Source of the DNA: an uncultured Planctomycetales bacterium
GTDB lineage: Bacteria > Omnitrophota > Gorgyraeia > Gygaellales > Profunditerraquicolaceae
Reading direction: 5' to 3'
Length of the DNA: 64,000 bases
Assembly (NCBI GenBank): GCA_964645795.1
Contig: CAZYCL010000003.1
Coordinates: 101,771 to 165,770, forward strand
In this document: positions 12,893 to 39,261 of the stretch, piece after piece
Layout: the number at the start of each line of letters is the position of its first letter
Numbering within the stretch: the first letter of the stretch is position 1
Made by a program: the position numbers and the translations under genes
Notes under the pieces: generated by a model
What the model was told of the DNA's origin: nothing
The model's input: only the letters and a program-made list of their open reading frames with translations
Database searches by the model: none

Positions 12893-14059
12893 ATGGCCAT
12901 TAACTACAAGAAGGAGCTGGAAAACGCCGCCAAGAACATGATCCTGGTCCATGAGCCGGAGGCCTTGATCAAAATGATCGTGCATAGGATCGTGCAGAAA
13001 GTCGGGGTCTGCTACGCCGCCATACTTTTACACGATAAGGCCGGCCTTGCTTACAGGCTGACGACCTCAAAGCTTCCCTCCCAGGCCAAGGTACCCGCAG
13101 GTTTTATCCGCATGAAGGAATCGAGCCCCCTTATAAGGTTTTTTCGTTCGCACAAGGACAAAGAGCTGCTTAACTCCGGCATACTTACCTACAAAAATCT
13201 TCGTCGCGCTCTTGAAAAAAAAGGCATCAGCCCCTATTTAAACAGGCTTCTTGCTAAGGTCGCTTTAAGCATGGAATCATTCGGGGTCGATGTGTGTATC
13301 CCGGGCTATTTCCGGGGGGAGCTTATAGGTATACTTCTGTTGGGAAGAAAGAAGAACGGCAGGGATTTCGACACTCATGAAAGGGATTTCTTCATGGCTA
13401 TAACTAACGACGTAGTTATGGCTATCCGTAATGCCCAGCTGTTCAATGACCTTGAGCAGGAGCTCGATAAGAAACAGAAGCTTTTTATCAACACAACCAT
13501 CGCCCTTGCCGCGGCGATCGACGCCAAGGACCATTATACCCACGGTCATACCGCTCGCGTGACGAATTTAAGCCTGGCTATCGCTAAGCACTTGATTAAA
13601 AGCAACAACAACGGCCTTAACGGCAGATTTCTTGACCAGCTGCATATCGCCGCGCTCCTCCATGATATCGGCAAGATCGGCATACCCGAAGCGATACTGA
13701 ATAAAGACGGTCCGCTGACGCAGGAGGAGAGCAGGTTGATACAGGAGCATCCTAACATCGGCGCTAATATCCTTCAGCCGATAAGGGAACTGGAAGAGGC
13801 GATCATGGGGGTCAAGTATCATCATGAGTATTACGACGGCTCCGGTTACCCCCATGGCCTCAAAGGCAATAAGATCCCGCTGATTGCCGCGATCATATCG
13901 GTTGCCGATGTGTTTGACGCCATGACCACGGACAGGCCTTACAGAAACAGGCTTACCAAAGAGGAGGCCATAAGGGAGATCAAGCGAGTAAGTAAACGCC
14001 AGCTTAACCCCCGCATAGTTTCGGCGCTGGTGAAGATCTACGAAGAAGGGGGGATATAG
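12893..14059 (+). CDS. GAF-domain HD-GYP phosphodiesterase (c-di-GMP hydrolase family)
   Basis: 388 aa with an N-terminal GAF-like region. The HD domain has HDIGKIGIP and the HD-GYP signature HHEYYDGSGYP. Confidence 0.85.
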   Translation: MAINYKKELENAAKNMILVHEPEALIKMIVHRIVQKVGVCYAAILLHDKAGLAYRLTTSKLPSQAKVPAGFIRMKESSPLIRFFRSHKDKELLNSGILTYKNLRRALEKKGISPYLNRLLAKVALSMESFGVDVCIPGYFRGELIGILLLGRKKNGRDFDTHERDFFMAITNDVVMAIRNAQLFNDLEQELDKKQKLFINTTIALAAAIDAKDHYTHGHTARVTNLSLAIAKHLIKSNNNGLNGRFLDQLHIAALLHDIGKIGIPEAILNKDGPLTQEESRLIQEHPNIGANILQPIRELEEAIMGVKYHHEYYDGSGYPHGLKGNKIPLIAAIISVADVFDAMTTDRPYRNRLTKEEAIREIKRVSKRQLNPRIVSALVKIYEEGGI

Positions 14060-17849: not shown

Positions 17850-19784
17850 ATGTTAGACTTTCGTTCGAAAATAAGGGAGCTGGGCAGAAGGCCTTATCTT
17901 GCTTACTTTATCGGCTGGTTTTTCGTTTATATGGTTATTGTCGGGCTGGCGGCCTCTTACAGCGGGATGAGGATCCGCGGCCGCCTCCTTGACCAGATCG
18001 ATGAGCAGCTCATGCTCACGGCCAAAAGCCTTAAATACATGCTTGCCGACGATTTCCACGACCGGGCAGTAAGCGAGAATTCGATCAGCTTTCAGGAAGA
18101 GATGAAGAACCGTAAAGCCCTTTCAGGGTTCGTCTCCGAGACCAATATCAGGTTTGTCTATACCCTTGCTGCCAAAGACGGCAAGTTTTACTTTTCCGCC
18201 CCTACGGTAACCGAAGAAGAGGCAAAGCAGCGCAAGTCATGGTATTTTTATCCCTATGATGACGCGCCTGCTTCATTCTGGCAGGCGCTTGAGAGCGGCA
18301 AGCCCACATTTGTAAGCTATTCGGACCAGTGGGGCAGATTCCGGTCGGTCGCGCTGCCGCAAAAGTCGCCTGGGGCAAGAGTATACCTGGCCTGCGCAGA
18401 TTACGATATCGGCGACATAAGTCAGACAATCGCAGCAGAGCAGATAAGGGTAATATTGACAGGCATGGTCCTTTTCCTGGCCAGCCTTCCTTTCCTGTTT
18501 CTCTACCGCCTTACTTACAGGTCCCATGCCGGCGAGCTCAGACGTAAGAACCAGGAGCTCCAGAATTATCAGGCCCATTTACAGGACCTGGTCGATGAAC
18601 GCACCAGAGAGCTTACGCTCGCAAAAGAGGAGGCAGAAGAGGCAAACCGCATGAAGTCAAGGCTGCTTTCGAGCATATCCCATGAGATCCGCACTCCGCT
18701 TCATGCCATTATCGCCTTCTCCGAGCTTATCATGCATACTTCGGCCGTTGAACAGATACAGGACCATATCAAAACGGTATTAAGCGAATCCAAAATATTG
18801 CTGCGCCTGTTAAACGACCTGCTGGATCTCACAAAGCTGGAAAGCGGCAGGCTTGATCTTAAGATAGACGAGTTAAACATCTACAGGCTATTGGAAGAAG
18901 TAAAGTGTTTTATGAGCCCGGTTGCCGAAGAAAAAGGGTTGTCGGTCATACTCTATGCCGACAGAAACCTTGATATCTGCGTCCTGGGAGACGCTTACAG
19001 ATTACGGCAGATACTTATGAACCTTATCGGAAACGCCATAAAGTTTACGGAAACCGGTTATGTGCGCGTGGATGCAAATCTCATCAAGGATTTGCCGGAT
19101 AAGATCGCGGTTGATTTCAAGGTCATTGATACCGGCATAGGTATAGAGCCGCAGAAAATAAGAAACGTATTCCAGGCTTTTTTTCAGATAGACGGGGGAA
19201 TCCAGAAGAAATACCGCGGGACAGGCCTGGGCAACAGCATCGTCAAGAACCTTGTAGAATTGATGGGCGGCCATATCGGCTGCAGCAGCGTTTTTGGAAA
19301 AGGTAGCACATTTTGGTTCGACCTGCCATTCAGCCGCTGCACTAAGCAGGTGCATTCCTGCGAACCGGAAACCGTCTGCCAGCAAGAGGCATTCGCAGGC
19401 GGATTCGAGGATTTTACGGGCAGCTTTCTGTTAGTAGAAGACAATGAAGTAAACCAAAGGGTGCTCCAGTTGCAGCTTAACTCGCTTAATCTAAACAATA
19501 TAACCGTTGCCGAGGACGGACTGGTGGCGCTGGATAAATGCAGAGAGAGAAAGTTTGATATAATGCTGGTAGATCTACATATGCCCAAAATGGACGGCTA
19601 CGAACTTTGTCAAAGGCTACGCCAGTTAAGCCAGCATTACGCCAGTATCCCTATTATCGCCATGACCGCGGACGCCGGGGAAGATGTTGTCAGTAAATGC
19701 AAGAGCTCGGGGTTTAGCGATATTATCTATAAGCCTTTCCAGATCAAAGAGATAAGTAATTTGTTCACAAGGATTTTGCGCTGA
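17850..19784 (+). CDS. Hybrid sensor histidine kinase / response regulator with a periplasmic sensor domain
   Basis: 644 aa. Two TM segments flank a ~165 aa periplasmic domain. It carries a HisKA H-box (SHEIRTPLHAI), HATPase_c motifs (N, G1 DTGIGI, G2 GTGLGNSIV) and a C-terminal REC (VDLHMPKMDG). Confidence 0.88.
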   Translation: MLDFRSKIRELGRRPYLAYFIGWFFVYMVIVGLAASYSGMRIRGRLLDQIDEQLMLTAKSLKYMLADDFHDRAVSENSISFQEEMKNRKALSGFVSETNIRFVYTLAAKDGKFYFSAPTVTEEEAKQRKSWYFYPYDDAPASFWQALESGKPTFVSYSDQWGRFRSVALPQKSPGARVYLACADYDIGDISQTIAAEQIRVILTGMVLFLASLPFLFLYRLTYRSHAGELRRKNQELQNYQAHLQDLVDERTRELTLAKEEAEEANRMKSRLLSSISHEIRTPLHAIIAFSELIMHTSAVEQIQDHIKTVLSESKILLRLLNDLLDLTKLESGRLDLKIDELNIYRLLEEVKCFMSPVAEEKGLSVILYADRNLDICVLGDAYRLRQILMNLIGNAIKFTETGYVRVDANLIKDLPDKIAVDFKVIDTGIGIEPQKIRNVFQAFFQIDGGIQKKYRGTGLGNSIVKNLVELMGGHIGCSSVFGKGSTFWFDLPFSRCTKQVHSCEPETVCQQEAFAGGFEDFTGSFLLVEDNEVNQRVLQLQLNSLNLNNITVAEDGLVALDKCRERKFDIMLVDLHMPKMDGYELCQRLRQLSQHYASIPIIAMTADAGEDVVSKCKSSGFSDIIYKPFQIKEISNLFTRILR

Positions 19785-19798
19785 TTTAGATACAGGTG

Positions 19799-20194
19799 CT
19801 AGAATTCGGGGTACTCCGAAGGCAGCTTCGGCTGCTCGACTTGCGGATCTTCGTTTATTCTGCTAAGACTGGGTTTGCCCACGGATTGTTTTAGCGGCGG
19901 TTTATCCCTTCTGTCAAACAAGCGCATAAGTATTTCCCTTAGCTGCGTGTCAGGGACTGCGACGCCAGAGTTTTCTGAGCGCTTAGATTTGGAATCCGGA
20001 AGCAGCTTCCTTGCGCCCTGAGACAGCTCTCTGTTTATTGACGCATTGCCGGAGTATACCGTTGAGCTCTTGTCTTTTTTGTCTTTCTTGTCTTTTTTGT
20101 CCTTGCCCGGCTTGCAATAACCGTCGCTAAAGCACAAAAACACCGATAGCAATAGTATTATAGAGATCCAGAGCGGCCGCCTTGATACCTCCAT
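19799..20194 (-). CDS. Small secreted/lipoprotein-like protein with a (KDK)n repeat, lysine-rich; hypothetical
   Basis: 131 aa. Signal peptide with a possible lipobox (LSVFLCFSDGYC), then KPGKDKKDKKDKKDK. A GGAGG RBS lies 6 nt upstream. It is the only gene downstream of the GEMM-like leader. Confidence 0.7.
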   Translation of the reverse strand: MEVSRRPLWISIILLLSVFLCFSDGYCKPGKDKKDKKDKKDKSSTVYSGNASINRELSQGARKLLPDSKSKRSENSGVAVPDTQLREILMRLFDRRDKPPLKQSVGKPSLSRINEDPQVEQPKLPSEYPEF

Positions 20195-20204
20195 TGAGCG
20201 CCTC

Positions 20205-20240
20205 CTAATAAAAAACCTACTCTTCTTAAAGTAGGTTTTC
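20205..20240 (-). terminator. Intrinsic terminator hairpin (expression platform) between the riboswitch aptamer and the RBS
   Basis: Minus-strand RNA: AAAACCUACU-UUAAGAAG-AGUAGGUUUU followed by UUUUUUAUU, i.e. a 10-bp stem, 8-nt loop and U-tract. GGAGG and the AUG follow immediately. Confidence 0.7.
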
Positions 20241-20244
20241 GGAC

Positions 20245-20340
20245 GCTAGAGTTTTCGGTAGCCTGACTACCCGTGTCGCTGTCGGGCTCACGGCTTTGCG
20301 TCCTCTCCTTGCGAAGAGTTTGCCTTTATCGAACAATATT
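20245..20340 (-). promoter_or_regulatory. c-di-GMP-I (GEMM) riboswitch aptamer
   Basis: Minus-strand RNA: ...GGCAAAC-CUCUUC-GCAA-GGAGAG-GACGCAAAGCC-GUGAG-CCCG-ACAGCGACA-CGGG-UAGUCAGGCUACCGA... Compared with the Vibrio cholerae Vc2 aptamer (...GGCAAACC-AUUC-GAAA-GAGU-GGGACGCAAAGCC...UACCGA), GGCAAAC and GACGCAAAGCC are identical and there is a 6-bp P1b hairpin capped by a GNRA tetraloop (GCAA). A second hairpin and the 3' UACCGA follow. Confidence 0.8.
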
Positions 20341-20353
20341 ATGACCCTAATAA

Positions 20354-20381
20354 ATTATAACATATTTAAATAAATATTCAA
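20354..20381 (-). promoter_or_regulatory. Sigma-70-like promoter for the riboswitch transcript (-35 TTGAAT, 16-nt spacer, -10 TATAAT)
   Basis: Reverse complement of 20354-20381 reads TTGAAT-atttatttaaatatgt-TATAAT. The predicted TSS lies a few nt upstream of the aptamer P1 region. Confidence 0.55.
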
Positions 20382-20527: not shown

Positions 20528-21067
20528 ATGGCCAAATATACGCTTCTGGTTCTGATGTTCCTCCTGTGCATCTTTTCTACGGCATCGCCCATTTCTTACC
20601 AGGATAAAAGGCGAGTGGAGGAGGAGAATAGAAAGAGCCTTGATCATAGCGAAAGGCCGTTTCACCCGCCAAAAAACGCCCCCTCACCAGACGAAGATGA
20701 CCCCAGTGACCTAAGGTACCTCAAAGGACTAAGAAACAAGGAGTTTTCTACTTTTGGCGACTGCCTTCAGCTCCTGCGCATACTGTTAGGCAAAAAAGAG
20801 TTGGTCGATAAGCTTGTTTCGGATGCCAACTTAAGCCTATCGCCTGAATCGGCCCTGACAAGAGGGATTGCTGCCGTACTCTTCTGCCGAGCGCTTGAAA
20901 TAAAAGGCGGGGTTTTGCTTCGGGTATTTGGCCTCAGCCAGCGCTACGCCTTAAAAGAGCTTGTTTACCTGGATATATTTGCCCCGGGACCTTTAGATAG
21001 CGTCATAAGCGGTGCAGAGCTGATTTCAGTGTTCAGCAACTGCGCAGCATACTTATTAAATAAATGA
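20528..21067 (+). CDS. Hypothetical exported protein
   Basis: 179 aa with an N-terminal signal peptide (MAKYTLLVLMFLLCIFSTASP) and no recognisable catalytic motif. It overlaps the next gene by 4 nt, suggesting an operon. Confidence 0.55.
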   Translation: MAKYTLLVLMFLLCIFSTASPISYQDKRRVEEENRKSLDHSERPFHPPKNAPSPDEDDPSDLRYLKGLRNKEFSTFGDCLQLLRILLGKKELVDKLVSDANLSLSPESALTRGIAAVLFCRALEIKGGVLLRVFGLSQRYALKELVYLDIFAPGPLDSVISGAELISVFSNCAAYLLNK

Positions 21068-22452
21068 GGCTCAGGCCCAGTCTGATGCTTATATGCTTCT
21101 TAGCCGCAACAGCCGGTGCGCAGGCAGATCCTTCGGTTAAGAGGATTGAGGAGGGGGCGCGGGAGGCCTTAAGCCGTACAGAAGCCAATTACAGACCGCC
21201 AAACAGTCGGCTGGCCATTGACTACGGGGGATGGCTCAATTTCAGGTATATTGACTACAACCAAGATGATAACGACCCCGCGCTTAGAGACGAAATAGAT
21301 TATCGCTTCTGGCAGGATAGCCGCCTATGGGCAAAGGTCAACTTTGACCCGGACAGCTCAGGGCTTAAAAATACGCATTCTTTGTATGTGAGGATCAAGA
21401 ATCTTTATTCTGTCAGCCGGCCCAACGAGACTGCCGGAAGTTCTGATAACGACGGGGTTCACCTTGATTATGCCTATTTAGAGCTTGACCTGCAACCTGT
21501 TTGGGTTAAGGCAGGAAGGCAGTATTTCAGCGTGGGCCAGGGCATTGCTTACTCCGATGTAGGTGACGGGCTCCAGTTCACGCTTGAACGGCATAAGCTT
21601 TCACTTAAGACTTTTTTCTCCCAATCCCTGCCACGAGAGGACAATATCGATACCAGCGCCCCAGGTTACGATAAACACTCCAGGCGCCAATTCTTCGGCG
21701 CAGAAGCCAGTTATAAGCCGACGGAAAACCAAAGTTTTTATGCCTTTACGGTCATCCAGAGAGATAAAAGTAAAGAGTATCCCGATGACCCCGAGCACGA
21801 CTTCAAATACGATTCTGAATACTACGGAATGGGCTTGCGCGGCACTCTTCTGCGCCCGGTCTCTTACTGGTGGGGCGTAATCCTGGAAAAAGGCAAAAGC
21901 TATATTTATGAGACCAACGAAAGAAAGGATGTGCTGGCTTGGGCCAATGTCCTGGCGATATCCTACGAGCCCGCCGTCTATTCCCACCCGAACTTCTACT
22001 TTAAGTACGCTTACGGTTCGGGGGATAAGGACAGGGTTAACGTCACCAATACCGAGGACGGTAATTCCTTCGGTAAAGATAGAAACTTCCTGTATTTCGG
22101 CTTTATCCCTACGGGCTACGCGCTTTCACCCCAGCTATCCAACCTGCAGTTTTTAAAAGGCGGTTTTACCTTTAAGCCTTTTGAGAAAAACAGGTTTTTG
22201 AAAGGCCTGTCTTTAGGCCTGGATTATTACAGGTATTTTAAAGCAGAGCCAAGCGGTGGCATTTATGACGAAGAGGCGTCTGAAGAGAGCTTTGATGTCG
22301 GCCATGAGGTCGATCTGACCGTAGACTGGCAGGTGTTTTCCGATCTGAATCTGTCTTTTGAATACGGGCGCTTTATGCCCGGAAAGGCATTTGCGCCTAG
22401 CTCAGGGCACAGCGAGGATTACCTATCCATAAGTACGACGCTCACTTTTTAA
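21064..22452 (+). CDS. Putative outer-membrane beta-barrel protein (porin/export-like), hypothetical
   Basis: 462 aa. Signal peptide ([21 protein letters not shown]). Alternating aromatic/hydrophilic beta-strand patterns throughout. C-terminal ...SISTTLTF ends in Phe, an OMP beta-signal. Confidence 0.6.
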
Positions 22453-23444
22453 TGAGAGCAAAAACATGGATATTGGCAGTTTTAATGATCGTATTTAGCG
22501 CAGGGGCATGCATGGCCGGCCAAAAAATACGCATTTACAACGCGCAAAGCAAGAAGATTGAAACGGTTGAGAAGGTTGCCAACTCCGAAGAGGAATGGAA
22601 AATAATATTAACGCCTGAGCAGTTTGAGGTAATGCGCAGAAAAGGCACCGAGCCGCCGGTCAAGGGCAAATGCGATTTACCCGACCAGGCAGGCATCTAT
22701 AGATGCGCCGGATGCGGCACTGACCTTTTTGAGGTAGGCGCAAAGTTTGAGTCCGGCACGGGCTGGCCGAGCTTCTGGCAGCCGGTTTCAGGGCTTAACG
22801 TCGCAACCCGCCATGATGAGAGCTTCGGTATGAGCCGCACAGAGGTCTTATGCGCCAGATGCGACTCCCATCTTGGCCATGTATTTGACGATGGGCCGCC
22901 CCCTACCGGCAGGCGTTATTGCATAAACTCCATAGCCCTGCAATTTGTGCCGCTAGCAAAGGGCAGCGAATCAGCAACTTTTGCGGCGGGATGCTTTTGG
23001 GGGGTAGAGGAGGCTTTCCGCGCCCTCAACGGCGTCTTGAATACCCGCGTAGGATATACCGGAGGCAGGTCAGCAAATCCTTCCTATGAGGATGTTTCAA
23101 GCGGCAAAACCGGCCATGCCGAGGCCGTGGAAGTAGAGTTTGATCCCGGCAAAACCTCGTATAAAGAGCTCTTAAAGGCCTTTTGGTCAATTCATGACCC
23201 TACTACCGTTGACAGGCAGGGTCCTGATACAGGAAGCCAATACCGTTCGGCTATCTTCTATCATAACCGCCAGCAGGAGTACGAAGCCCGACTATATTTG
23301 AAAGAGCTTCAGAGTTCGGCTAAATTCAAAGGGAGGATCGTCACTCAAATACTTGCGGCAGGCAACTTTTATCCTGCAGAAGAATACCACCAGCGCTACT
23401 TCCAAAAGCGCGGCATGGCGAGGAACTGCCATATAGCTGAATAA
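22452..23444 (+). CDS. msrAB: Exported bifunctional peptide-methionine sulfoxide reductase MsrB-MsrA fusion
   Basis: 330 aa with a signal peptide. The MsrB half has two CxxC pairs (CAGCGTDLF...[18 protein letters not shown]). The MsrA half has the [12 protein letters not shown] active site. Confidence 0.88.
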
Positions 23445-23899
23445 TGTTGAACTCCGGCTCTATTAAAGGTATAATTTACTCAATGGACATCATTAGGCAG
23501 ATACCTTCCGATCTTATGGCTGCGCAAAGGTTTATAAGCTACGCTGCCGAAGAGATAAAGGCCCTTCCTTTCACGGCAGAGCAACTTTACGATATCAGGC
23601 TATCCCTGGAAGAAGCGATCGTAAATTCGATAAAACACGGGAATAAATTCAAGGACGGCCTTTTTGTCACGGTGCGCTTAAAAGATAACGGGGACGGGCT
23701 TACTATCATTGTTTGCGACCAGGGCCAGGGTTTTGATTACTGCAATATTCCTGATCCGACCAGGCCTGCCAACCTTCAAAAACCTTCGGGAAGAGGCGTA
23801 TTCCTTATGCGCAGCCGCATGGATGAGATCCAGTTCTCTGACGGAGGCCGCTCGATAAAGATGCTGAAGCTTTTCAATAAGCAGGGAGGTAGCAAGTGA
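23444..23899 (+). CDS. RsbW/SpoIIAB-family serine-protein kinase (anti-sigma-factor-type HATPase)
   Basis: 151 aa with N-box EAIVNSIKHG, G1 CDQGQGF and G2 SGRGVFLM (HATPase_c_2). The start could instead be the Met at 23483. There is a 1-nt TAATG overlap with msrAB. Confidence 0.75.
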   Translation: MLNSGSIKGIIYSMDIIRQIPSDLMAAQRFISYAAEEIKALPFTAEQLYDIRLSLEEAIVNSIKHGNKFKDGLFVTVRLKDNGDGLTIIVCDQGQGFDYCNIPDPTRPANLQKPSGRGVFLMRSRMDEIQFSDGGRSIKMLKLFNKQGGSK

Positions 23900-24228
23900 A
23901 AATATCCCAAGACAGAATATCGGATGTGGTTATCTGCGTCCCTGAGGGAGAGGTGAATATCTCAAACTCCCCGGAACTTAGAAAACGTTTCGATGAATTG
24001 ATCAATAAAAGCGAGAAGAAGGTGCTGGTGGATTTTTCTGCCATCTCCTACATTGACAGCTCGGGGCTGGCCACGTTGATAGAGCTGTATCAGAGGTTAA
24101 AGAAGATCGGCGGGCGCATGAGGTTTTGCTCGATGGAAGAGAAGGTAAGAAACACCTTCGAAATCACCAAGCTTAACAAGCTATTCGAGATATTCCCGGG
24201 CCGACAGGAAGCCTTGAGGGACTTCTGA
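23896..24228 (+). CDS. STAS-domain protein (anti-sigma-factor antagonist / MlaB-like)
   Basis: 110 aa with the SpoIIAA-type phospho-serine motif DFSAISYIDSSGLATL. It sits directly upstream of mlaE. Confidence 0.8.
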   Translation: MKISQDRISDVVICVPEGEVNISNSPELRKRFDELINKSEKKVLVDFSAISYIDSSGLATLIELYQRLKKIGGRMRFCSMEEKVRNTFEITKLNKLFEIFPGRQEALRDF

Positions 24229-25016
24229 TGATAGAGGGCATCGGCAAAACGATCATAGGTTTTTTTGTATGGGCCGGGGATATATTAAAGCTCTTATCAA
24301 AGGTCGTTTACTGGATAATCATCGGCCCCTTTAAAGGCAAACCAGTGCATAGCGACAGCGTATTCAACCAGATGGCCTTTGTGGGGCTGCGGTCTATAAT
24401 CATCGTCTTCTTCGTAGATATGTTCACCGGCATAGTCCTGGCCATGCAGAGCGCATACCAGCTTGAGAAGATGGGCGCCGTAATCTATGTTGCTTCGCTT
24501 GTAGCGGTGTCCCTGTGCCGGGAGCTAAGCCCGGTATTGACGGGCCTGGTAGTTGCCGGCAGGGCCGGCTCTTCCATTGCCGCAGAGCTTGGTACGATGA
24601 AGGTCACCGAACAGATCGAGGCCTTGAGCACCATGTCGATCGATCCGGTGCGTTTTCTTGCGGTCCCCAGGTTTCTTGCATTGCTGGTCATGTTGCCGTG
24701 CCTGGTCGTCCTTGGCAATCTTTCCGGCATACTCGGGGGTTTTATCGTAGGCACCACAAGCCTTAACATAAACCCCGATCTCTATGTCCAGACCATGTTT
24801 AAATACCTGGCCATAAAGGATATTTATACCGGGCTTATAAAAGCGGCAGTTTTCGGAGTGATCATTGCGTTGGTCTCCTGCCACGAAGGCCTGAACGCCA
24901 AAGGCGGGGCCGAAGGGGTCGGCAAGGCTACTACGGCTAGCGTCGTCTCCAGCTTCATACTTATCATACTCTCGGACTGCCTGATTACCGCGATCTTCTA
25001 CTTCTCAAAGATATGA
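24228..25016 (+). CDS. mlaE: Phospholipid ABC transporter permease MlaE
   Basis: 262 aa MlaE/YrbE/Ttg2B-family permease with 5-6 TM segments. Confidence 0.85.
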   Translation: MIEGIGKTIIGFFVWAGDILKLLSKVVYWIIIGPFKGKPVHSDSVFNQMAFVGLRSIIIVFFVDMFTGIVLAMQSAYQLEKMGAVIYVASLVAVSLCRELSPVLTGLVVAGRAGSSIAAELGTMKVTEQIEALSTMSIDPVRFLAVPRFLALLVMLPCLVVLGNLSGILGGFIVGTTSLNINPDLYVQTMFKYLAIKDIYTGLIKAAVFGVIIALVSCHEGLNAKGGAEGVGKATTASVVSSFILIILSDCLITAIFYFSKI

Positions 25017-25831
25017 GTAAAAAAGAGCCGATACTTTCTTTACAGGGTGTCACAAAATCATTCCTGGGAAAGCCCGTGATCGATAATGTCAGCTTTGATG
25101 TTTTTGCCGGCGAGACTTTTGTGATCATGGGCTGTTCCGGTTCGGGAAAGAGCACGCTGCTGCGCCTGATGAACGGCACTATTGCTCCGGATAAAGGGAC
25201 CGTGCTCATCAAAGGCAAGGACATTTACAATATCCCGGCGCAGGAGCTTGGCGACATTAAAAAGAGCTTCGGCATGCTTTTTCAGTACTCTGCCCTGCTG
25301 GATTCTCTTACGGTAGAAGAGAACATTGCCCTGCCCCTCAGGGAGCACTCAAGGCTGGCGGATGAGATCATCGACATAATCATCAAGATGAAGCTGTCTT
25401 TGGTTGGGCTGCGCGGATATGAAAAGTATTATCCGTCGCAGATCTCAGGCGGCATGCGCAAACGCGTAGGGCTTGCCCGCGCGATAGCGCTTGACCCCGA
25501 TATAGTCTTTTATGATGAGCCTACATCCGGGCTTGACCCGGTGGTCGCAGCCATCATCGACAAGCTGATCAAGGATCTGAGCGCCAAACTCCTCATCACA
25601 TCCGTTGTCGTTACTCACGACATGCAGAGCGTATTTGAACTGGCTGACAGGGTTGCCATGGTGCATAAGGGAAGGGTTGTCGAAGTAGGCAGCGCAAAAG
25701 AGATACGGCATTCCTCCAATCCCTATATACAACAGTTTATTAACGGCAGGCCCGAGGGGCCGATAGATTTCTTTAAGGACGACGCCGGGATCATCGAGTA
25801 TCTCGGGTTACAGGAAGAGGGGAGCTTATGA
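25013..25831 (+). CDS. mlaF: Phospholipid ABC transporter ATP-binding protein MlaF
   Basis: 272 aa with Walker A GCSGSGKST, signature LSGGMRKRVGLAR and Walker B IVFYDEPTSGLD. Confidence 0.88.
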   Translation: MSKKEPILSLQGVTKSFLGKPVIDNVSFDVFAGETFVIMGCSGSGKSTLLRLMNGTIAPDKGTVLIKGKDIYNIPAQELGDIKKSFGMLFQYSALLDSLTVEENIALPLREHSRLADEIIDIIIKMKLSLVGLRGYEKYYPSQISGGMRKRVGLARAIALDPDIVFYDEPTSGLDPVVAAIIDKLIKDLSAKLLITSVVVTHDMQSVFELADRVAMVHKGRVVEVGSAKEIRHSSNPYIQQFINGRPEGPIDFFKDDAGIIEYLGLQEEGSL

Positions 25832-26379
25832 AAAAACATACGAACGAATTCAAGGTAGGTGTATTTGCGCTTCTTTGTCTTGCGGGCCTGCTCTATTTGA
25901 CCGTATCTACAGGCAAGCTCTCTTTCGGCAGCGCCGGATATCCGATAAACGTCGTTTTTGACGAAATAGCCGGGCTTGACAAGAAGGCGCCGGTGATGCT
26001 TAACGGCCTGGAGGTCGGCAAGGTCAGCGACATCGATGTATCCTACGAAGGGGAGAGGACACTGATAAAGCTCTGCCTGAAGATTGACAAGGATGTCAAG
26101 ATCCGGCAGGGCTCGCGCGTCTTTATTAAAACGCTAGGGCTTATGGGCGAGAAGTATATACAGATCGCCTCGTCAGAGAACCCCGAGTTCCTTTTGCCAG
26201 GCGATACCATTGAAGGCCAGCCTTACGCGGACATGGATATCCTCATATGCAATCTGAACAGCACGCTTGAGGATAACAATGAGCGTTTCGCAAATATTGC
26301 CAAAAACTTCGAAGCCTTCAGCGACGACATAAGAAAACATCCCTGGAAGCTATTGATCAAGACCAGGGAAAACAGGTAG
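25828..26379 (+). CDS. mlaD: MCE-domain periplasmic substrate-binding protein MlaD
   Basis: 183 aa with an N-terminal TM anchor, then an MCE domain (VVFDEIAGLDKKAPVMLNGLEVGKVSDI). Confidence 0.85.
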   Translation: MKKHTNEFKVGVFALLCLAGLLYLTVSTGKLSFGSAGYPINVVFDEIAGLDKKAPVMLNGLEVGKVSDIDVSYEGERTLIKLCLKIDKDVKIRQGSRVFIKTLGLMGEKYIQIASSENPEFLLPGDTIEGQPYADMDILICNLNSTLEDNNERFANIAKNFEAFSDDIRKHPWKLLIKTRENR

Positions 26380-28251: not shown

Positions 28252-30144
28252 ATGGTCATCTCAAGCCTCATTTTTAAAAAAACAGCCCCCGTGCTTTTAG
28301 GGGCGTTTTTTGTTCTGGTGCTTGCCTCGGGCAGGTATCTGGACGGTCCGGAGATCTCCTCCTATGACCTAAGGATGGCCATGAGGCCGGCGCTTAAGGT
28401 CTCTGACAAGATCGTGATCATCGAGATCTCCGACGACACGCTTAAAAACCTCGGGCTTTGGCCCCTGCCCAGGGATTTCCACGCCACCATTACCGCAGTT
28501 TTAAAAGAAGCCGGCGCAAGGGCCCTGGTCTTTGACATCCTTTTCAGCGAGCCCTCTGTGTATGATAAAGAGTTTGCCGAAACCTTAAAGGATTTCGGCA
28601 GGGCATATCTGGGGGTGGCTTTTGATTCCGGGGTATCCAAAAATCCGCGGCTGCTTGCCGGTATTGCGCCGCAGCTAACAGGGGCAGCCTGCGCAATAGG
28701 CCACATCAATACGGTAGTTGACGCTGACGGCAAGATCAGAAAGGTGCCTGTTTTTGTCTCTGGCGGCAGCGCAAAAACCCCTCAACTCGGTTTTAAAGTC
28801 GCCTGCGATATCCTGGGGCTGGATATATCAAAATCAAGGCTTAGTGCAGGCGCCTTAATCATCGATGGCCGCATGAAGCTGCCCCTGGTGGACGATAAAT
28901 ACCTGTTGGTGAATTATCCCGGCCGCTGGCAGGATTCTTTTCTGCACCTTTCATACTTTGATATCCTCGATTCTTACAACCAGCTTATCGATGGCAAGGC
29001 CCCCCGCATAGACCTCTCGGTCCTGAAGGATAAAATATGTTTTATAGGGCTGACCGCCACCGGCACTTCCGACTTTCAGCCTGTTCCGCTTGAAAACGTC
29101 TATCCGCTGGTAGGGCTGCAGGCAAGCATCACAAACAGCCTGCTTAATAACAATTTTATCCATCGGGCCTCCAGGGGCATTAACGCCCTTATCGCTTTGC
29201 TGATCTTTTTCTTAAGCCTCTATGCCTGTTTGAAGTTTGCCCCGCTGAAGGCGCTGCTTAATAACATTGTGCTGGGCAGCGTCTACTTCGTTATTGCCTG
29301 CCTGTTGTTTGTCCTTTACGGGGTCTGGGTCGACCTGTTTTTGCCGCTGGCAGTGGTTTTTGCGCTGTATTTGACGCTTACCGTCCGGCGGTTCTTCATC
29401 GAGAACAGATTAAGGCAGCTTTTGGAAAAAGAGCTGGAGATCGCCCGCTCCATCCAGGAAAGCTTCCTGCCGGATAAACCGGCAATAACCGAAGGCTTGG
29501 GGCTCCACAGTCATTTATCGGCGGCAAAGTTTGTCGCGGGCGACCTCTACGACCTGGTGGCGCTTGGCGACAGGAGCGCCGGAATGTTTATCGCTGACGT
29601 AGCCGGAAAAGGGGTTTCCGCATCCCTGGTCATGGCTCAGGTGATCTCGCTTTTCAGGATATACTCCCGCCAGTATCATGATTGCGCCAGGGTATTGGGC
29701 CTTCTCAATGAAGAGCTTTGCAGCAGGGAGTCGCTTCGTTTTGTGACCGCCCTCTATATAATAATCGATACCGCAAAGAAAACCGTCTCTGCTTCTTCGG
29801 CCGGCCACGGGCCCCTGTTGATTTATCGAGGTTCTTGTGTGACGGTAGAAGAAGCCTGCCTTGATCAGGGGTTGCCTTTGGGGATTGAGAAGAATGCGGG
29901 GTATCGGAATGTTGAATTCACCGTCAGCCCCGGAGACAGGCTTATGATATTTACCGACGGACTTCCTGAGTCCAGGAACCGCAAGCGTCAGGAGTTCGGC
30001 ACGGAAAGGATCCGGGATATCCTTATTAAATCCGGGGCAAAAGATGCCGGTGGGATATCGCAGGCAATAATGGAAGAGGTGGCCAGGTTTTGCGCCGGCG
30101 CCGCCCAGCATGACGACATAACCCTGCTTGTCGGGGCAGTGTAA
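28252..30144 (+). CDS. CHASE2 sensor domain - transmembrane - PP2C (SpoIIE/RsbU-type) serine phosphatase
   Basis: 630 aa. Periplasmic CHASE2-like domain (residues ~30-300), three or four TM helices, then a PP2C catalytic domain (FVAGDLYDL...FIADVAGKGVSASLVMAQ...FTDGLPE). Confidence 0.8.
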   Translation: MVISSLIFKKTAPVLLGAFFVLVLASGRYLDGPEISSYDLRMAMRPALKVSDKIVIIEISDDTLKNLGLWPLPRDFHATITAVLKEAGARALVFDILFSEPSVYDKEFAETLKDFGRAYLGVAFDSGVSKNPRLLAGIAPQLTGAACAIGHINTVVDADGKIRKVPVFVSGGSAKTPQLGFKVACDILGLDISKSRLSAGALIIDGRMKLPLVDDKYLLVNYPGRWQDSFLHLSYFDILDSYNQLIDGKAPRIDLSVLKDKICFIGLTATGTSDFQPVPLENVYPLVGLQASITNSLLNNNFIHRASRGINALIALLIFFLSLYACLKFAPLKALLNNIVLGSVYFVIACLLFVLYGVWVDLFLPLAVVFALYLTLTVRRFFIENRLRQLLEKELEIARSIQESFLPDKPAITEGLGLHSHLSAAKFVAGDLYDLVALGDRSAGMFIADVAGKGVSASLVMAQVISLFRIYSRQYHDCARVLGLLNEELCSRESLRFVTALYIIIDTAKKTVSASSAGHGPLLIYRGSCVTVEEACLDQGLPLGIEKNAGYRNVEFTVSPGDRLMIFTDGLPESRNRKRQEFGTERIRDILIKSGAKDAGGISQAIMEEVARFCAGAAQHDDITLLVGAV

Positions 30145-31617: not shown

Positions 31618-32304
31618 CTATCCGTGATAGCCCAGGCCTTTTTCGCGGGCGAGCCTGTCACTGACATACTTTGCTAGCCTGTCCTGCTCTTCAGAGCTTA
31701 TGTCGATAAGCTTTATGCCGTAGTACCATTTATCCGCCTTCAAGAATTCGCTCTTCCAGACTATCCTGCCCATGTACTCGGTATTATTTACCTCGGGCAG
31801 CTTTATGGCGATCTTTGCCCCATCTTCATACTTGGTCCTGGAGATAAGCAGCAGGCCGCCGGCCCCCAGATTTTTGGTTACGCCTTCATCATAATCCTGG
31901 AAAATGTTGGGATACTCCTGGGTATAAGCTTTGATTACGTGCTCCATCCGGAAGAACCGTCTTCTGTCCTTGTGGGGCCTGAAGCTTCTGGGCCTGCTCA
32001 ACACCCACAGGTATACGGGCTGCTCAACGGTCTCTTTAAATTTGACCTCGGATTTAAAGTACTGGTCACCCCTAAGGACAAATACCTCGATCCTCTGGTC
32101 CGGGAGGGATTCCATGGATTCTACCTCATGAGGGCTTATGCCGCCTATATAGATATTCTCCTGGTCCCAGTCTTCGATGCGGCTGACAAGGGTCCGCTGA
32201 GAATCGCCTATACGCAGGAATATGCTTTGGTGAGGCGATATTTTATCGTCAAGCTTCTCGACTTTGCTTTCTGCTAACTTCTTAAAAAGATTTACAATTT
32301 CCAT
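31618..32304 (-). CDS. YcgR-like c-di-GMP-binding protein (PilZN + PilZ domains)
   Basis: 228 aa with PilZ signatures RRRFFR (RxxxR) and NLGAGGLLL (D/NxSxxG). Confidence 0.75.
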   Translation of the reverse strand: MEIVNLFKKLAESKVEKLDDKISPHQSIFLRIGDSQRTLVSRIEDWDQENIYIGGISPHEVESMESLPDQRIEVFVLRGDQYFKSEVKFKETVEQPVYLWVLSRPRSFRPHKDRRRFFRMEHVIKAYTQEYPNIFQDYDEGVTKNLGAGGLLLISRTKYEDGAKIAIKLPEVNNTEYMGRIVWKSEFLKADKWYYGIKLIDISSEEQDRLAKYVSDRLAREKGLGYHG

Positions 32305-32389: not shown

Positions 32390-33070
32390 TTAGTCGCTTT
32401 CCGCAGCGCCTTTGGCCAGCCTGTCCTTTACATATGAATCGAGCTTATGCAATGCTTCAGGGCTGATGTTCAGAAATTTCATGCCGTAATACCATTTATC
32501 ATATTTGGGGGAAGGGCTTTTCCAGAGGGTATGGCCTAAAAACTCGTATTTACATATATCCGGGAACTTAAGCACGATCTTTGTCCTTAGGTCAAAGCTG
32601 TTTCTGGATATGAGCATCGCTCCGCCCAGGCAGATATTCTTGACCATCGTCTCTTCGTAATCCTGGAAGATGTTCGGATATTCCTGTATAAAGGTTTTGG
32701 CTACATTCTCCAGGCGGTAGCACTGCCTCCTGTCCTGGTGCACAACGAACTTTTTAGGCATACTCAGCACCCACAGGTATATCGGCTGCTCGATCATTTT
32801 AATAAAGAACACTTCCGATCTATAATAGGAGCCGCCTATAAGGATGAAGAGCTCTATTTTCTGTCCGGGGTAGGGAACGGCAAAGTGGTTCTCATCGCTG
32901 CTTATGCCGGAGACGTGGATCCTGTCTTCGTACCAGTCTTCTATGCGGGAAACCAGGGTCTGAGGAGAGGCGCCGAAGCGTATAAACAAGCTTTGGCGCA
33001 GCTTCACCTTGTCCTGAAGCCTGAAAGAACTGTTTGCCGGCATTCTCTGAAAAAACCGCATAATATTCAT
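32390..33070 (-). CDS. YcgR-like PilZ-domain protein, tandem paralog of 31618-32304
   Basis: 226 aa, collinear with the neighbouring paralog. PilZ motifs RRQCYR and NICLGGAML. Confidence 0.72.
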   Translation of the reverse strand: MNIMRFFQRMPANSSFRLQDKVKLRQSLFIRFGASPQTLVSRIEDWYEDRIHVSGISSDENHFAVPYPGQKIELFILIGGSYYRSEVFFIKMIEQPIYLWVLSMPKKFVVHQDRRQCYRLENVAKTFIQEYPNIFQDYEETMVKNICLGGAMLISRNSFDLRTKIVLKFPDICKYEFLGHTLWKSPSPKYDKWYYGMKFLNISPEALHKLDSYVKDRLAKGAAESD

Positions 33071-38100: not shown

Positions 38101-38114
38101 ATAAACAAATTTGA

Positions 38115-38285
38115 TTATACGGGTTAGGGAAATCAGTCGAAGTACAAGCTGATGCGGTCCCGCCGCTGTGATCCCGGCCTCCTTGAAAGGGAGGCAGCCT
38201 TTGGAGTTAGTAAAGCCACTGTCCGCCGCAAGCGGGTGGGAAGGCTAACCAATGGCCAAGGAAAGCCAGAAGACCTGCCTGTATA
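38115..38285 (+). promoter_or_regulatory. Cobalamin (AdoCbl-type) riboswitch aptamer
   Basis: Conserved blocks appear in the canonical order: GGGAA...CTG...CCCGCCGCTGTGA (cf. CCCGCAACTGTAA), then the GCCACTG core, then GGGAAGGC, then the B12 box AAGCCAGAAGACCTGCC. It is upstream of btuF. Confidence 0.8.
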
Positions 38286-38329
38286 AAGACGCAAAAGCCT
38301 CGAGGAAAGGGCCAAGTAAATATTTGGGT

Positions 38330-38379: not shown

Positions 38380-39261
38380 ATGTCAAGAGTTCGCAATATC
38401 CTTTTTTTCATTTTAGTCTTAACAACAACCGTAATCCGGCTATTTGTACTTTGTGATACAGGATCTTGTCATGAGGGGGAAAAAAGCTCGCCCAGATACA
38501 TTTCCCTGGCGCCTTCTACCACCGAAATCCTTTTCGCGCTGGGTCTGGACAAAGAGATAGTGGGGGTAAGCACTTTCTGCGATTACCCGCCGCAAGCAAG
38601 GCATAAGCGTAAAGTGGGCAGTTTCAGCAGCCCCAGCATCGAAACCATTCTTTACCTGAGGCCCGATTACATCTTCTGCACAGGGCTGGAACAGGCGCCG
38701 GCAATAGAAGTCCTAAGGCGCCTGGGTTTAGCGGTATTTGTTTGCGACCCTGCCGGCACAAAAGAGTTGTTTGACTCTATCGCCCAGATCGCAATGATAG
38801 TCGGCAGAGAAACAGAGGGCAAAGAGCTTATAAACAAGATGCGCTCTGAGATAATGACGGTCGCCCGGAAGTCGGAAAATATCCCCGATGAAACAAAATT
38901 GCGGGTTTTCATCGAGATCTGGCATGAGCCTCTGATGACTGCAGGAAAAGGGTCATTTGTGGATGAGCTTATCGGCCTGGCAGGCGGCATAAATATAGCC
39001 CATAATACTATCAGGCCTTACAGCAATTACAGCGCAGAGATGGTGATCAAATCCAACCCACAGGTGATCATCCTGACATACATGGATAAAGAATCGCCGT
39101 TGAAGCTTGTTGAAAACAGGTTCGGTTGGAAAGGTATCGAGGCAATACGGAAGAGGCGCGTATTTAACGATATAAGCTCAAGCCTGCTTTTGAGGCCCGG
39201 GCCAAGGGTTGGCGAAGGGCTCAAGGCCGTCTACGAGAAGCTATATGGAAAGACCGATTAA
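38380..39261 (+). CDS. btuF: Periplasmic cobalamin/corrinoid ABC transporter substrate-binding protein (BtuF-like, class III SBP)
   Basis: 293 aa with a signal/lipoprotein-like N-terminus and a PBP fold typical of BtuF/FhuD. Riboswitch-controlled and followed by FecCD permease and ATPase genes. Confidence 0.75.
   Translation: MSRVRNILFFILVLTTTVIRLFVLCDTGSCHEGEKSSPRYISLAPSTTEILFALGLDKEIVGVSTFCDYPPQARHKRKVGSFSSPSIETILYLRPDYIFCTGLEQAPAIEVLRRLGLAVFVCDPAGTKELFDSIAQIAMIVGRETEGKELINKMRSEIMTVARKSENIPDETKLRVFIEIWHEPLMTAGKGSFVDELIGLAGGINIAHNTIRPYSNYSAEMVIKSNPQVIILTYMDKESPLKLVENRFGWKGIEAIRKRRVFNDISSSLLLRPGPRVGEGLKAVYEKLYGKTD

Follow-up and report, generated by a model that had tools for sequence, protein, structure and literature searches.

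A class-I c-di-GMP riboswitch with promoter and intrinsic terminator, probably an OFF switch, in front of a small secreted-protein gene of Omnitrophota

The DNA analysed here, hereafter called the window, is a stretch of 64,000 nucleotides (nt) from contig CAZYCL010000003.1 (assembly GCA_964645795.1) of an uncultured bacterium of the phylum Omnitrophota. The subject of this work is a riboswitch on its minus strand that belongs to class I (GEMM-I) of the riboswitches for cyclic dimeric guanosine monophosphate (c-di-GMP). Read on that strand from 20381 to 19799, the sequence presents, in this order, a promoter, the aptamer, a 13-nt spacer, a terminator, a ribosome-binding site and the ATG of an open reading frame (ORF) of 131 amino acids (aa; 19799-20194), and the aptamer thus stands in sense orientation inside the 5' leader of this gene. 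The promoter consists of a -35 hexamer TTGAAT (20376-20381) and, after a 16-nt spacer, an extended -10 element (TGT followed by TATAAT, TGTTATAAT; 20354-20362, hexamer 20354-20359). The two hexamers agree with the consensus at 10 of 12 positions, which confirms the TTGAAT/TATAAT promoter that an earlier note on this DNA had placed at 20354-20381. Taken alone, such a single-site scan is weak evidence, four promoter-like sites being returned for the region against 1.5 expected by chance. However, the call is better supported than by the scan because 21 of 28 related leaders likewise have a TG-extended -10 (TGnTAnnnT), placed 13-20 nt before the aptamer. Judged from the position of this promoter, transcription would start at about 20346-20348. 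Downstream of it follow the 81-nt aptamer (20253-20333), a spacer with the element GCGUCC (20241-20246), which takes part in the minimum-free-energy folds of growing transcripts, the intrinsic terminator (20207-20239) and a Shine-Dalgarno sequence GGAGG (20201-20205), which lies 6 nt before the ATG at 20194 and is resembled by a GGAG or GGGG motif in the orthologous leaders.

The identity of the aptamer is established by several lines of evidence. A scan of the whole window with Rfam at gathering thresholds returned two matches, the aptamer and a cobalamin riboswitch. The aptamer matches a family of clan CL00126 over the full length of the model at 20253-20333 of the minus strand, with 68.7 bits for a gathering score of 59 and an E-value of 3.8e-14. 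The matching model is RF03167 (c-di-GMP-I-GGC), and a second family of the same clan also passes its own gathering score at these coordinates. The earlier note had expected a score above threshold with RF01051; the match above threshold was obtained within the clan, but with RF03167 as the top model, and since clan competition reports only the best member, the window's own RF01051 score is hidden, which counts against the assignment. Orthologous aptamers reach 55-64 bits with RF01051 (threshold 35), and the window aptamer scores 93.7 bits with the covariance model built here from five leaders. The strings and coordinates that had been read as the core of the aptamer are correct, as direct reading gives GGCAAAC at 20324-20318, a 6-bp hairpin capped by GCAA at 20318-20303, GACGCAAAGCC at 20302-20292, a second hairpin and UACCGA at 20260-20255. 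The minimum-free-energy fold of the isolated aptamer is the secondary structure of the family, in which a 4-bp closing helix P1 and a G-C/C-G pair are followed by the 6-bp hairpin P1a (CUCUUC-GCAA-GGAGAG, 20303-20318) and by a bulged hairpin P2 (20260-20295), in which a G bulges out of one strand and AG out of the opposite strand. The GNRA tetraloop GCAA of P1a (20312-20309) is present, and the AG bulge (20268-20267) matches the conserved AG of the model, that is, the receptor bulge. It is thereby confirmed that the element is a class-I c-di-GMP aptamer equipped with a promoter and a terminator.

Additional evidence comes from related loci, which were reached through gene order by starting from the divergent porin gene on the other side of the leader. 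This gene encodes a 462-aa porin of the alginate-export family (PF13372, E 7.6e-22) and, together with the gene of a 179-aa protein, occupies 20528-22452 of the plus strand, outside the riboswitch. The porin has 159 homologues, the best non-self one with 57% identity; those that are named belong almost all to Candidatus Omnitrophota. The contexts of four of them (L007, L009, L011 and L012) have the same layout as the window, i.e., a small minus-strand gene without Pfam match, an intergenic region, and then on the plus strand a gene of 175-200 aa followed by the porin gene. In each of the four, the region just before the small gene contains a class-I c-di-GMP aptamer according to Rfam. A genome scan with the single porin protein as query found no loci, whereas a genome-wide scan with the porin alignment found 80, and the covariance model made from five leaders detected the aptamer in about 27 of these, at an unchanged relative position and always in front of a secreted-protein gene. 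In an alignment of 34 distinct related aptamers, 92.6% of cells are paired, compared with 30-49% in slid controls in which the partners were moved by 1-3 columns. Compensatory changes on both sides occur in 18 of the 24 aptamer pairs, and none of 500 shuffles reaches the observed values of pairing and covariation. All six pairs of P1a covary among the orthologues and 8 of the 12 pairs of P2 have changed on both sides. The GNRA hairpin and the second hairpin, whose failure to be conserved in orthologous leaders the earlier note would have held against its proposal, are thus both kept with compensatory changes, and its assignment to class I agrees both with this covariation and with the Rfam match. 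The six metagenome contigs that carry the exact 131-aa protein together with its leader provide no covariation information, since the leader is 100% identical in them. Taken together, the comparison shows that the class-I aptamer and its link to a secreted-protein gene family are conserved across Omnitrophota. Some of the related loci depart from the simple layout: two class-I aptamers lie close together in L057 (2663-2759 and 3053-3150) and in L035 (4296-4393 and 4586-4680), and insertions of 40-70 nt occur in the region of the first hairpin in L038 (2451-2611, just 3' of the hairpin) and in L032 (7090-7217, inside it).

The bases that contact the ligand are canonical in the window. The equivalent of G20 of Vc2, which contacts one guanine of the ligand, is the G at 20324, at the unpaired model position 10 of the Rfam alignment. 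The equivalent of A47 is the A at 20297 (model position 37), a position at which the RF03167 consensus has G. The equivalent of C92, whose partner in a Watson-Crick pair is the second guanine, is the C at 20258, in the junction AC that directly precedes the 3' strand of P1. Each guanine of c-di-GMP is recognised by one of the two bases G20 and C92, while an A at position 20 is the mark of relatives that sense cyclic GMP-AMP (cGAMP) (PMC6140456, PMC5888326). Because the three bases G20, A47 and C92 are canonical, the window element is read as an ordinary c-di-GMP sensor, neither of the GGC variant nor of the cGAMP type, and these bases together with the c-di-GMP genes of the window suggest that c-di-GMP is the ligand. 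The genes in question encode, at 12893-14059 (+), a GAF and HD_5 protein with an HD...GYP motif, which is likely a c-di-GMP phosphodiesterase, and, at 31618-32304 (-) and 32390-33070 (-), two tandem YcgR-like proteins with PilZNR and PilZ domains. As far as their predicted domains go, these HD-GYP and PilZ proteins are consistent with c-di-GMP signalling in the organism.

Downstream of the aptamer, a stable hairpin is followed immediately by a U tract, as is characteristic of intrinsic terminators. The hairpin AAAACCUACUUU-AAGA-AGAGUAGGUUUU (20239-20212) has 12 pairs and a folding energy of -12.6 kcal/mol when taken alone, and it runs into the tract U6AUU (20215-20207, with U6 at 20215-20210); the surrounding 68-nt region folds with -21.4 kcal/mol (z = -3.0). 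A stem of 10 bp with U6 had been described here; hairpin and U6 are present, but the stem is composed of an 8-bp G+C core, CCUACUUU/AGAGUAGG, and four A-U pairs. Likewise, the terminator does adjoin GGAGG, at a distance of 4 nt from the U6 run and not of 3 nt. A consensus terminator scan did not list this hairpin; the likely reason is that part of the U tract is taken up by the A-U extension of the stem. In the orthologues, the terminator CCUACUUC...GAAGUAGG with about eight U is conserved, and its stem is replaced in L012 and L017 by a compensatory variant, CCUGCUUC/GAAGCAGG. The architecture of a transcription-terminating riboswitch that the earlier note had recognised is therefore complete, as promoter, aptamer and terminator are all present and the terminator is conserved with compensatory changes.

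How the aptamer acts on the terminator depends on which of the two structures can form together. The aptamer ends at 20253 and the terminator begins at 20239, so that they do not overlap and are separated by the 13-nt gap (10-60 nt in the orthologues). In the class, both arrangements have been described: in the OFF switch Cd1, aptamer and terminator coexist and an antiterminator competes, while in the ON switch pilM, terminator and aptamer overlap and are mutually exclusive (PMC9262584). Since aptamer and terminator of the window share no sequence and can form together, ligand binding most likely favours termination. The orthologous leaders suggest how read-through might occur without ligand. 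In 18 of 25 leaders, the 5' arm and loop of the terminator hold a run of 8-14 nt that is complementary to the tetraloop of P1a and its flank and that crosses all four loop bases, whereas with shuffled terminators only 0.6 leaders on average show a complementarity to P1a of at least 8 nt. Tetraloop and terminator loop also covary: 15 leaders combine GUAA with UUAC or UUAU, and three (L030, L034 and L024) combine GCAA with UUGC or UUGU. When the transcript is cut before the 3' arm of the terminator, the pairing between P1a and terminator is the minimum-free-energy fold in four leaders, by 1.3-6.6 kcal/mol, and the aptamer fold stays lowest in five others. This complementarity points to an antiterminator formed by P1a and the terminator. 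Neither the ligand-bound aptamer nor the terminator can form together with such a pairing, which therefore, if functional, would make the ligand lead to termination. A classical antiterminator formed by the 3' strand of P1 was also considered and set aside, as P1 has no overlap with the terminator and the only complementarity seen between that strand and the terminator 5' arm was a 5-bp run, the orthologues having been inspected by eye. In the window, the best upstream partners of the terminator 5' arm reach only about -5 kcal/mol.

In the resulting model, transcription would start at the TG-extended sigma-70 promoter near 20347 and the nascent RNA would fold into the aptamer (20333-20253), the ligand contacting G20, A47 and C92. 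The ligand-bound aptamer and the separate terminator 13 nt downstream would coexist and transcription would terminate (OFF, like Cd1), while without ligand P1a would pair with the terminator and RNA polymerase would read through into a monocistronic gene for a small Sec-exported protein. Overall, the element is very probably a canonical class-I c-di-GMP riboswitch (GEMM-I, with a GNRA tetraloop) that would act as an OFF switch by termination on a small secreted-protein gene; for the OFF polarity considered by itself, the sequences make us lean towards it with less confidence. Several observations weigh against this model. The leaders L030 and L024 are close relatives, which reduces the three cases of GCAA with UUGY to about two independent events. 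The window itself is one of seven exceptions to the family pattern, having a GCAA tetraloop for a terminator loop AAGA, without complementarity between the loops, and no P1a-terminator pairing of the family type is found in the fold of its transcript. What remains is that the 5' strand of P1a, ACUCUUC, pairs with GAAGAGU of the terminator 3' arm over 7 bp, with a 4-bp extension, a duplex of -11.2 kcal/mol compared with -13 to -20.5 kcal/mol in 20 of 24 other leaders. Moreover, the best fold that lacks the terminator is less stable by 5.7 kcal/mol than the one that contains it, and the window terminator could be largely constitutive. The spacer element GCGUCC can pair perfectly with GGACGC of the aptamer core (20303-20298), or else with GGAGGC of the ribosome-binding region (20205-20200). 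According to the folds of growing transcripts it would add a translational OFF component in the window, although the element is not conserved in the orthologous leaders.

The regulated 131-aa protein has a predicted signal peptide (about aa 1-27), a K/D-rich run and the C-terminus EYPEF, the KDKK run being encoded by a 9-nt tandem repeat at 20070-20101. The description of a small exported lysine-rich protein behind the riboswitch is thus borne out by the signal peptide and the K-rich run. The protein had also been called lipoprotein-like. A lipobox at the end of a signal peptide has the consensus [LVI][ASTVI][GAS]C. The residues that lead to Cys27 are D-G-Y-C, which does not fit, and among 16 aligned proteins Cys27 is shared by that of L007 only, with one more having a Cys at a neighbouring position, so this description finds no support. 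No homologue was found in a word-indexed search, in Pfam or in NCBIfam, and a HMMER scan of 1.84 billion cluster representatives gave no match, not even to the representative of the protein's own cluster; the exact protein is called on eight metagenome contigs. Its novelty therefore holds as far as detection by sequence homology goes, but it is not a complete orphan, as relatives emerge from gene order. With its L007 orthologue it aligns end to end (pairwise E 2e-11), both proteins keeping the signal peptide, the start AYCKPGK, a short helix-like segment and the end EYP[EA]F. The other members of the family have a signal peptide that ends in Y-[AGS], followed by xPK and a K/D/N-rich stretch, then a core SRWxYNPNDxRGQGNMGxVxMLDPYGHDKDSDRxELYGNRGRVIR, which the proteins of the window and L007 do not have, a long PEPxP tail and a C-terminal xPF. 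In Pfam and NCBIfam, this family matches no model at threshold, and a profile search with its conserved core gave only five matches. As judged from the alignment, the window protein is a shortened member of the secreted-protein family that lies downstream of the riboswitch across Omnitrophota.

Other explanations concern either the ligand or the mode of action. With regard to the ligand, the Rfam label deserves attention, as RF03167 is the best-scoring model for the window, at 68.7 bits, and for most of the orthologues (it was taken as best model for the window, L009, L011-L018, L026, L030, L033, L034, L036, L039 and L040), and the element might be regarded as a member of the c-di-GMP-I-GGC variant, possibly with altered ligand specificity. 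The name GGC presumably denotes the bases at positions 20, 47 and 92, as we take it from the model consensus. At position 47 the RF03167 consensus reads ACGCGAA and the window ACGCAAA, the discriminating base being A and not G; GCGAA occurs in none of 93 fetched loci and GCAAA in 37 of them. Of the junction bases that precede the 3' strand of P1, the first is likewise A in the window and G in the consensus. Among the orthologues, the best model alternates between RF03167 and RF01051 while the base at position 47 remains unchanged, and a score above the RF03167 threshold is not decisive because the models of the clan recognise the same sequences (PMC9943018). Membership in the GGC variant is thus extremely improbable. 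The A at position 47 upholds the canonical class-I assignment made in the earlier note in spite of the top score of RF03167, and the label is misleading, in that Rfam clan competition mislabels canonical A47 aptamers as the GGC variant. Greater weight has to be given to the proposal that the natural ligand is 3'3'-cGAMP, or that both cyclic dinucleotides are bound, as in the cGAMP riboswitches of type GEMM-Ib. A20, which marks relatives that sense cGAMP or have dual specificity, is present in 7 of 28 orthologous leaders (UAGCAAAC), namely L007 (5184-5274, -), L018, L020, L023, L047, L032 and L043, and L007 is the closest relative found for the window locus. Ligand specificity is therefore not fixed within the lineage, which weighs against the main reading. 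The window itself does not carry the A20 that defines GEMM-Ib, its base at 20324 being G, and for wild-type Vc2, which has G20, the affinity for c-di-GMP is picomolar, whereas cGAMP is bound only at about 10 uM (PMC6140456). Given also the PilZ and HD-GYP proteins encoded in the window, cGAMP is a highly unlikely ligand for this copy.

With regard to the mode of action, the same aptamer could be an ON switch in which c-di-GMP blocks the terminator and induces the secreted protein. ON examples exist in the class, such as the Geobacter pilM cGAMP switch (PMC9262584), and the lack of a strong predicted ligand-free antiterminator in the window means that its sequence alone leaves the polarity unfixed. 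However, an ON switch needs mutual exclusion of aptamer and terminator, which the gaps of 13 nt here and 10-60 nt in the orthologues do not provide, and the only conserved long-range complementarity involves P1a, which is necessarily intact in the ligand-bound fold; we therefore regard the ON polarity as unlikely. Another alternative is that the window copy is a decayed switch, having become a constitutive attenuator or having moved its control to translation through GCGUCC, which would pair with the aptamer core in the absence of ligand and with the ribosome-binding site in its presence. This is suggested by the loss of the tetraloop/terminator-loop complementarity, by the margin in favour of the terminator fold, by the presence of both GGACGC:GCGUCC and GCGUCC:GGAGGC in the folds of growing transcripts, and by the loss of the family's conserved core from the window protein as well. 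Against decay stand an aptamer that has kept all conserved positions and equals its orthologues in score, a leader that is identical in six independent metagenome contigs, the interrupted complementarity of 7 bp and 4 bp to the terminator that remains, and the restriction of GCGUCC to the window. Decay is on balance improbable, and an OFF switch by termination remains the preferred reading. A last proposal looks beyond the leader to the far end of the gene, where a convergent hybrid histidine kinase gene (17850-19784) has its stop codon only 14 nt from that of the riboswitch gene and no terminator was detected between the two by the terminator scan; the two transcripts may overlap in antisense. 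Antisense control of the kinase gene might then be the main role of the riboswitch-controlled transcript, and it is in line with this that antisense arrangements are more enriched among c-di-GMP riboswitches than in any other class (PMC9943018) and that L007 likewise has a convergent kinase. Yet in the other orthologous loci the convergent gene encodes an unrelated protein, in L012 the small gene's stop codon is directly followed by a terminator-like GC-rich hairpin and U run, and what is conserved downstream in every case is the ORF of the secreted protein, equipped with a ribosome-binding site of its own, which makes a main role in antisense very improbable.

The genes around the riboswitch are conserved to different degrees. 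The gene order of the porin module is found also in L007, L009, L011, L012 and about 23 further genomes, and the 179-aa protein and its counterpart in L009 share 37% identity (E 5e-36), indicating that this gene is conserved. A conserved four-gene module that would include the convergent gene was considered and rejected, as L009 has at the corresponding place a 577-aa protein that is unrelated to the window kinase. On the other side of the module, overlapping the stop codon of the porin gene (ATGA), lies the gene of an MsrB-MsrA fusion with an N-terminal signal-like segment (22452-23444, +), which is not at the corresponding position in the related loci examined. It is followed by a HATPase_c_2 anti-sigma-type kinase (23444-23899, +), which, together with a CHASE2-SpoIIE phosphatase (28252-30144, +), is a candidate component of a partner-switching system, and by an MlaE/MlaF/MlaD transporter operon (24228-26379). 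Besides the riboswitch gene, the two PilZ genes are the only clearly genuine minus-strand genes in the ORF list of the window, the remaining minus-strand ORFs being located inside plus-strand genes. The cobalamin riboswitch (RF00174; 62.9 bits, threshold 31.5) lies at 38104-38296 of the plus strand and precedes the ORF at 38380-39261.

Class-I c-di-GMP riboswitches have been characterised since 2008, and the window element, taken alone, is one more example of a long-known class. The more interesting side results are the phylum-wide regulon, the G20/A20 alternation and the tetraloop-complementary terminator, all of which we infer. Combined, they allow the tentative and still doubtful proposal that one conserved riboswitch controls an undescribed secreted-protein family across Omnitrophota, a partner of the 179-aa protein and the porin, whose genes are always adjacent, that it senses mostly c-di-GMP but cGAMP in the A20 lineages, and that the loop region of its terminator invades the GNRA-capped hairpin by using the tetraloop as a toehold, a kind of expression platform undescribed for the class. 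No paper was found that links Omnitrophota to riboswitches beyond passing mentions, and the element offers an entry point to the use of c-di-GMP riboswitch control in this uncultivated and poorly understood phylum. It would also assign an unannotated family of secreted proteins, together with the neighbouring porins, to a cyclic-dinucleotide regulon. With its approximately 27 natural variants, which include G20 as well as A20 forms and covarying tetraloops and terminator loops, this leader could serve to test the evolution of ligand specificity and the logic of expression platforms. A practical caution is that RF03167 labels arising from Rfam clan competition can cover canonical aptamers.

Among known systems, the aptamer of the window is in its overall sequence very close to the seed of RF03167, from which it differs at the discriminating base. 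Compared with Vc2 of Vibrio cholerae (RF01051), it likewise consists of two hairpins closed by P1, the first one with a GNRA tetraloop, and it has in common with Vc2 the strings GGCAAAC, GACGCAAAGCC and UACCGA as well as the bases G20, A47 and C92 (PMC6140456). The tetraloop is GCAA in the window and GAAA in Vc2, the second hairpin of the window is shorter and its P1 has only 4 bp. It differs from Vc2 also in being followed by an intrinsic terminator and in its host, an uncultivated Omnitrophota bacterium. The Geobacter GEMM-Ib cGAMP switches (pilM, Gs1761) use the same aptamer scaffold and, as the window does, an intrinsic terminator; however, they have A20, act as ON switches and have a terminator that overlaps the aptamer (PMC6140456, PMC9262584), whereas the window has G20 and no overlap. 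A closer parallel in layout is Cd1 of Clostridioides difficile, which, like the window, has a separate intrinsic terminator able to coexist with the folded aptamer (PMC9262584). The two differ in their targets, a flagellar operon in Cd1 and a single small secreted protein in the window, and apparently also in the antiterminator, which in Cd1 uses the 3' strand of P1, while in the Omnitrophota leaders it is the apical part of the terminator that is complementary to P1a and its tetraloop.

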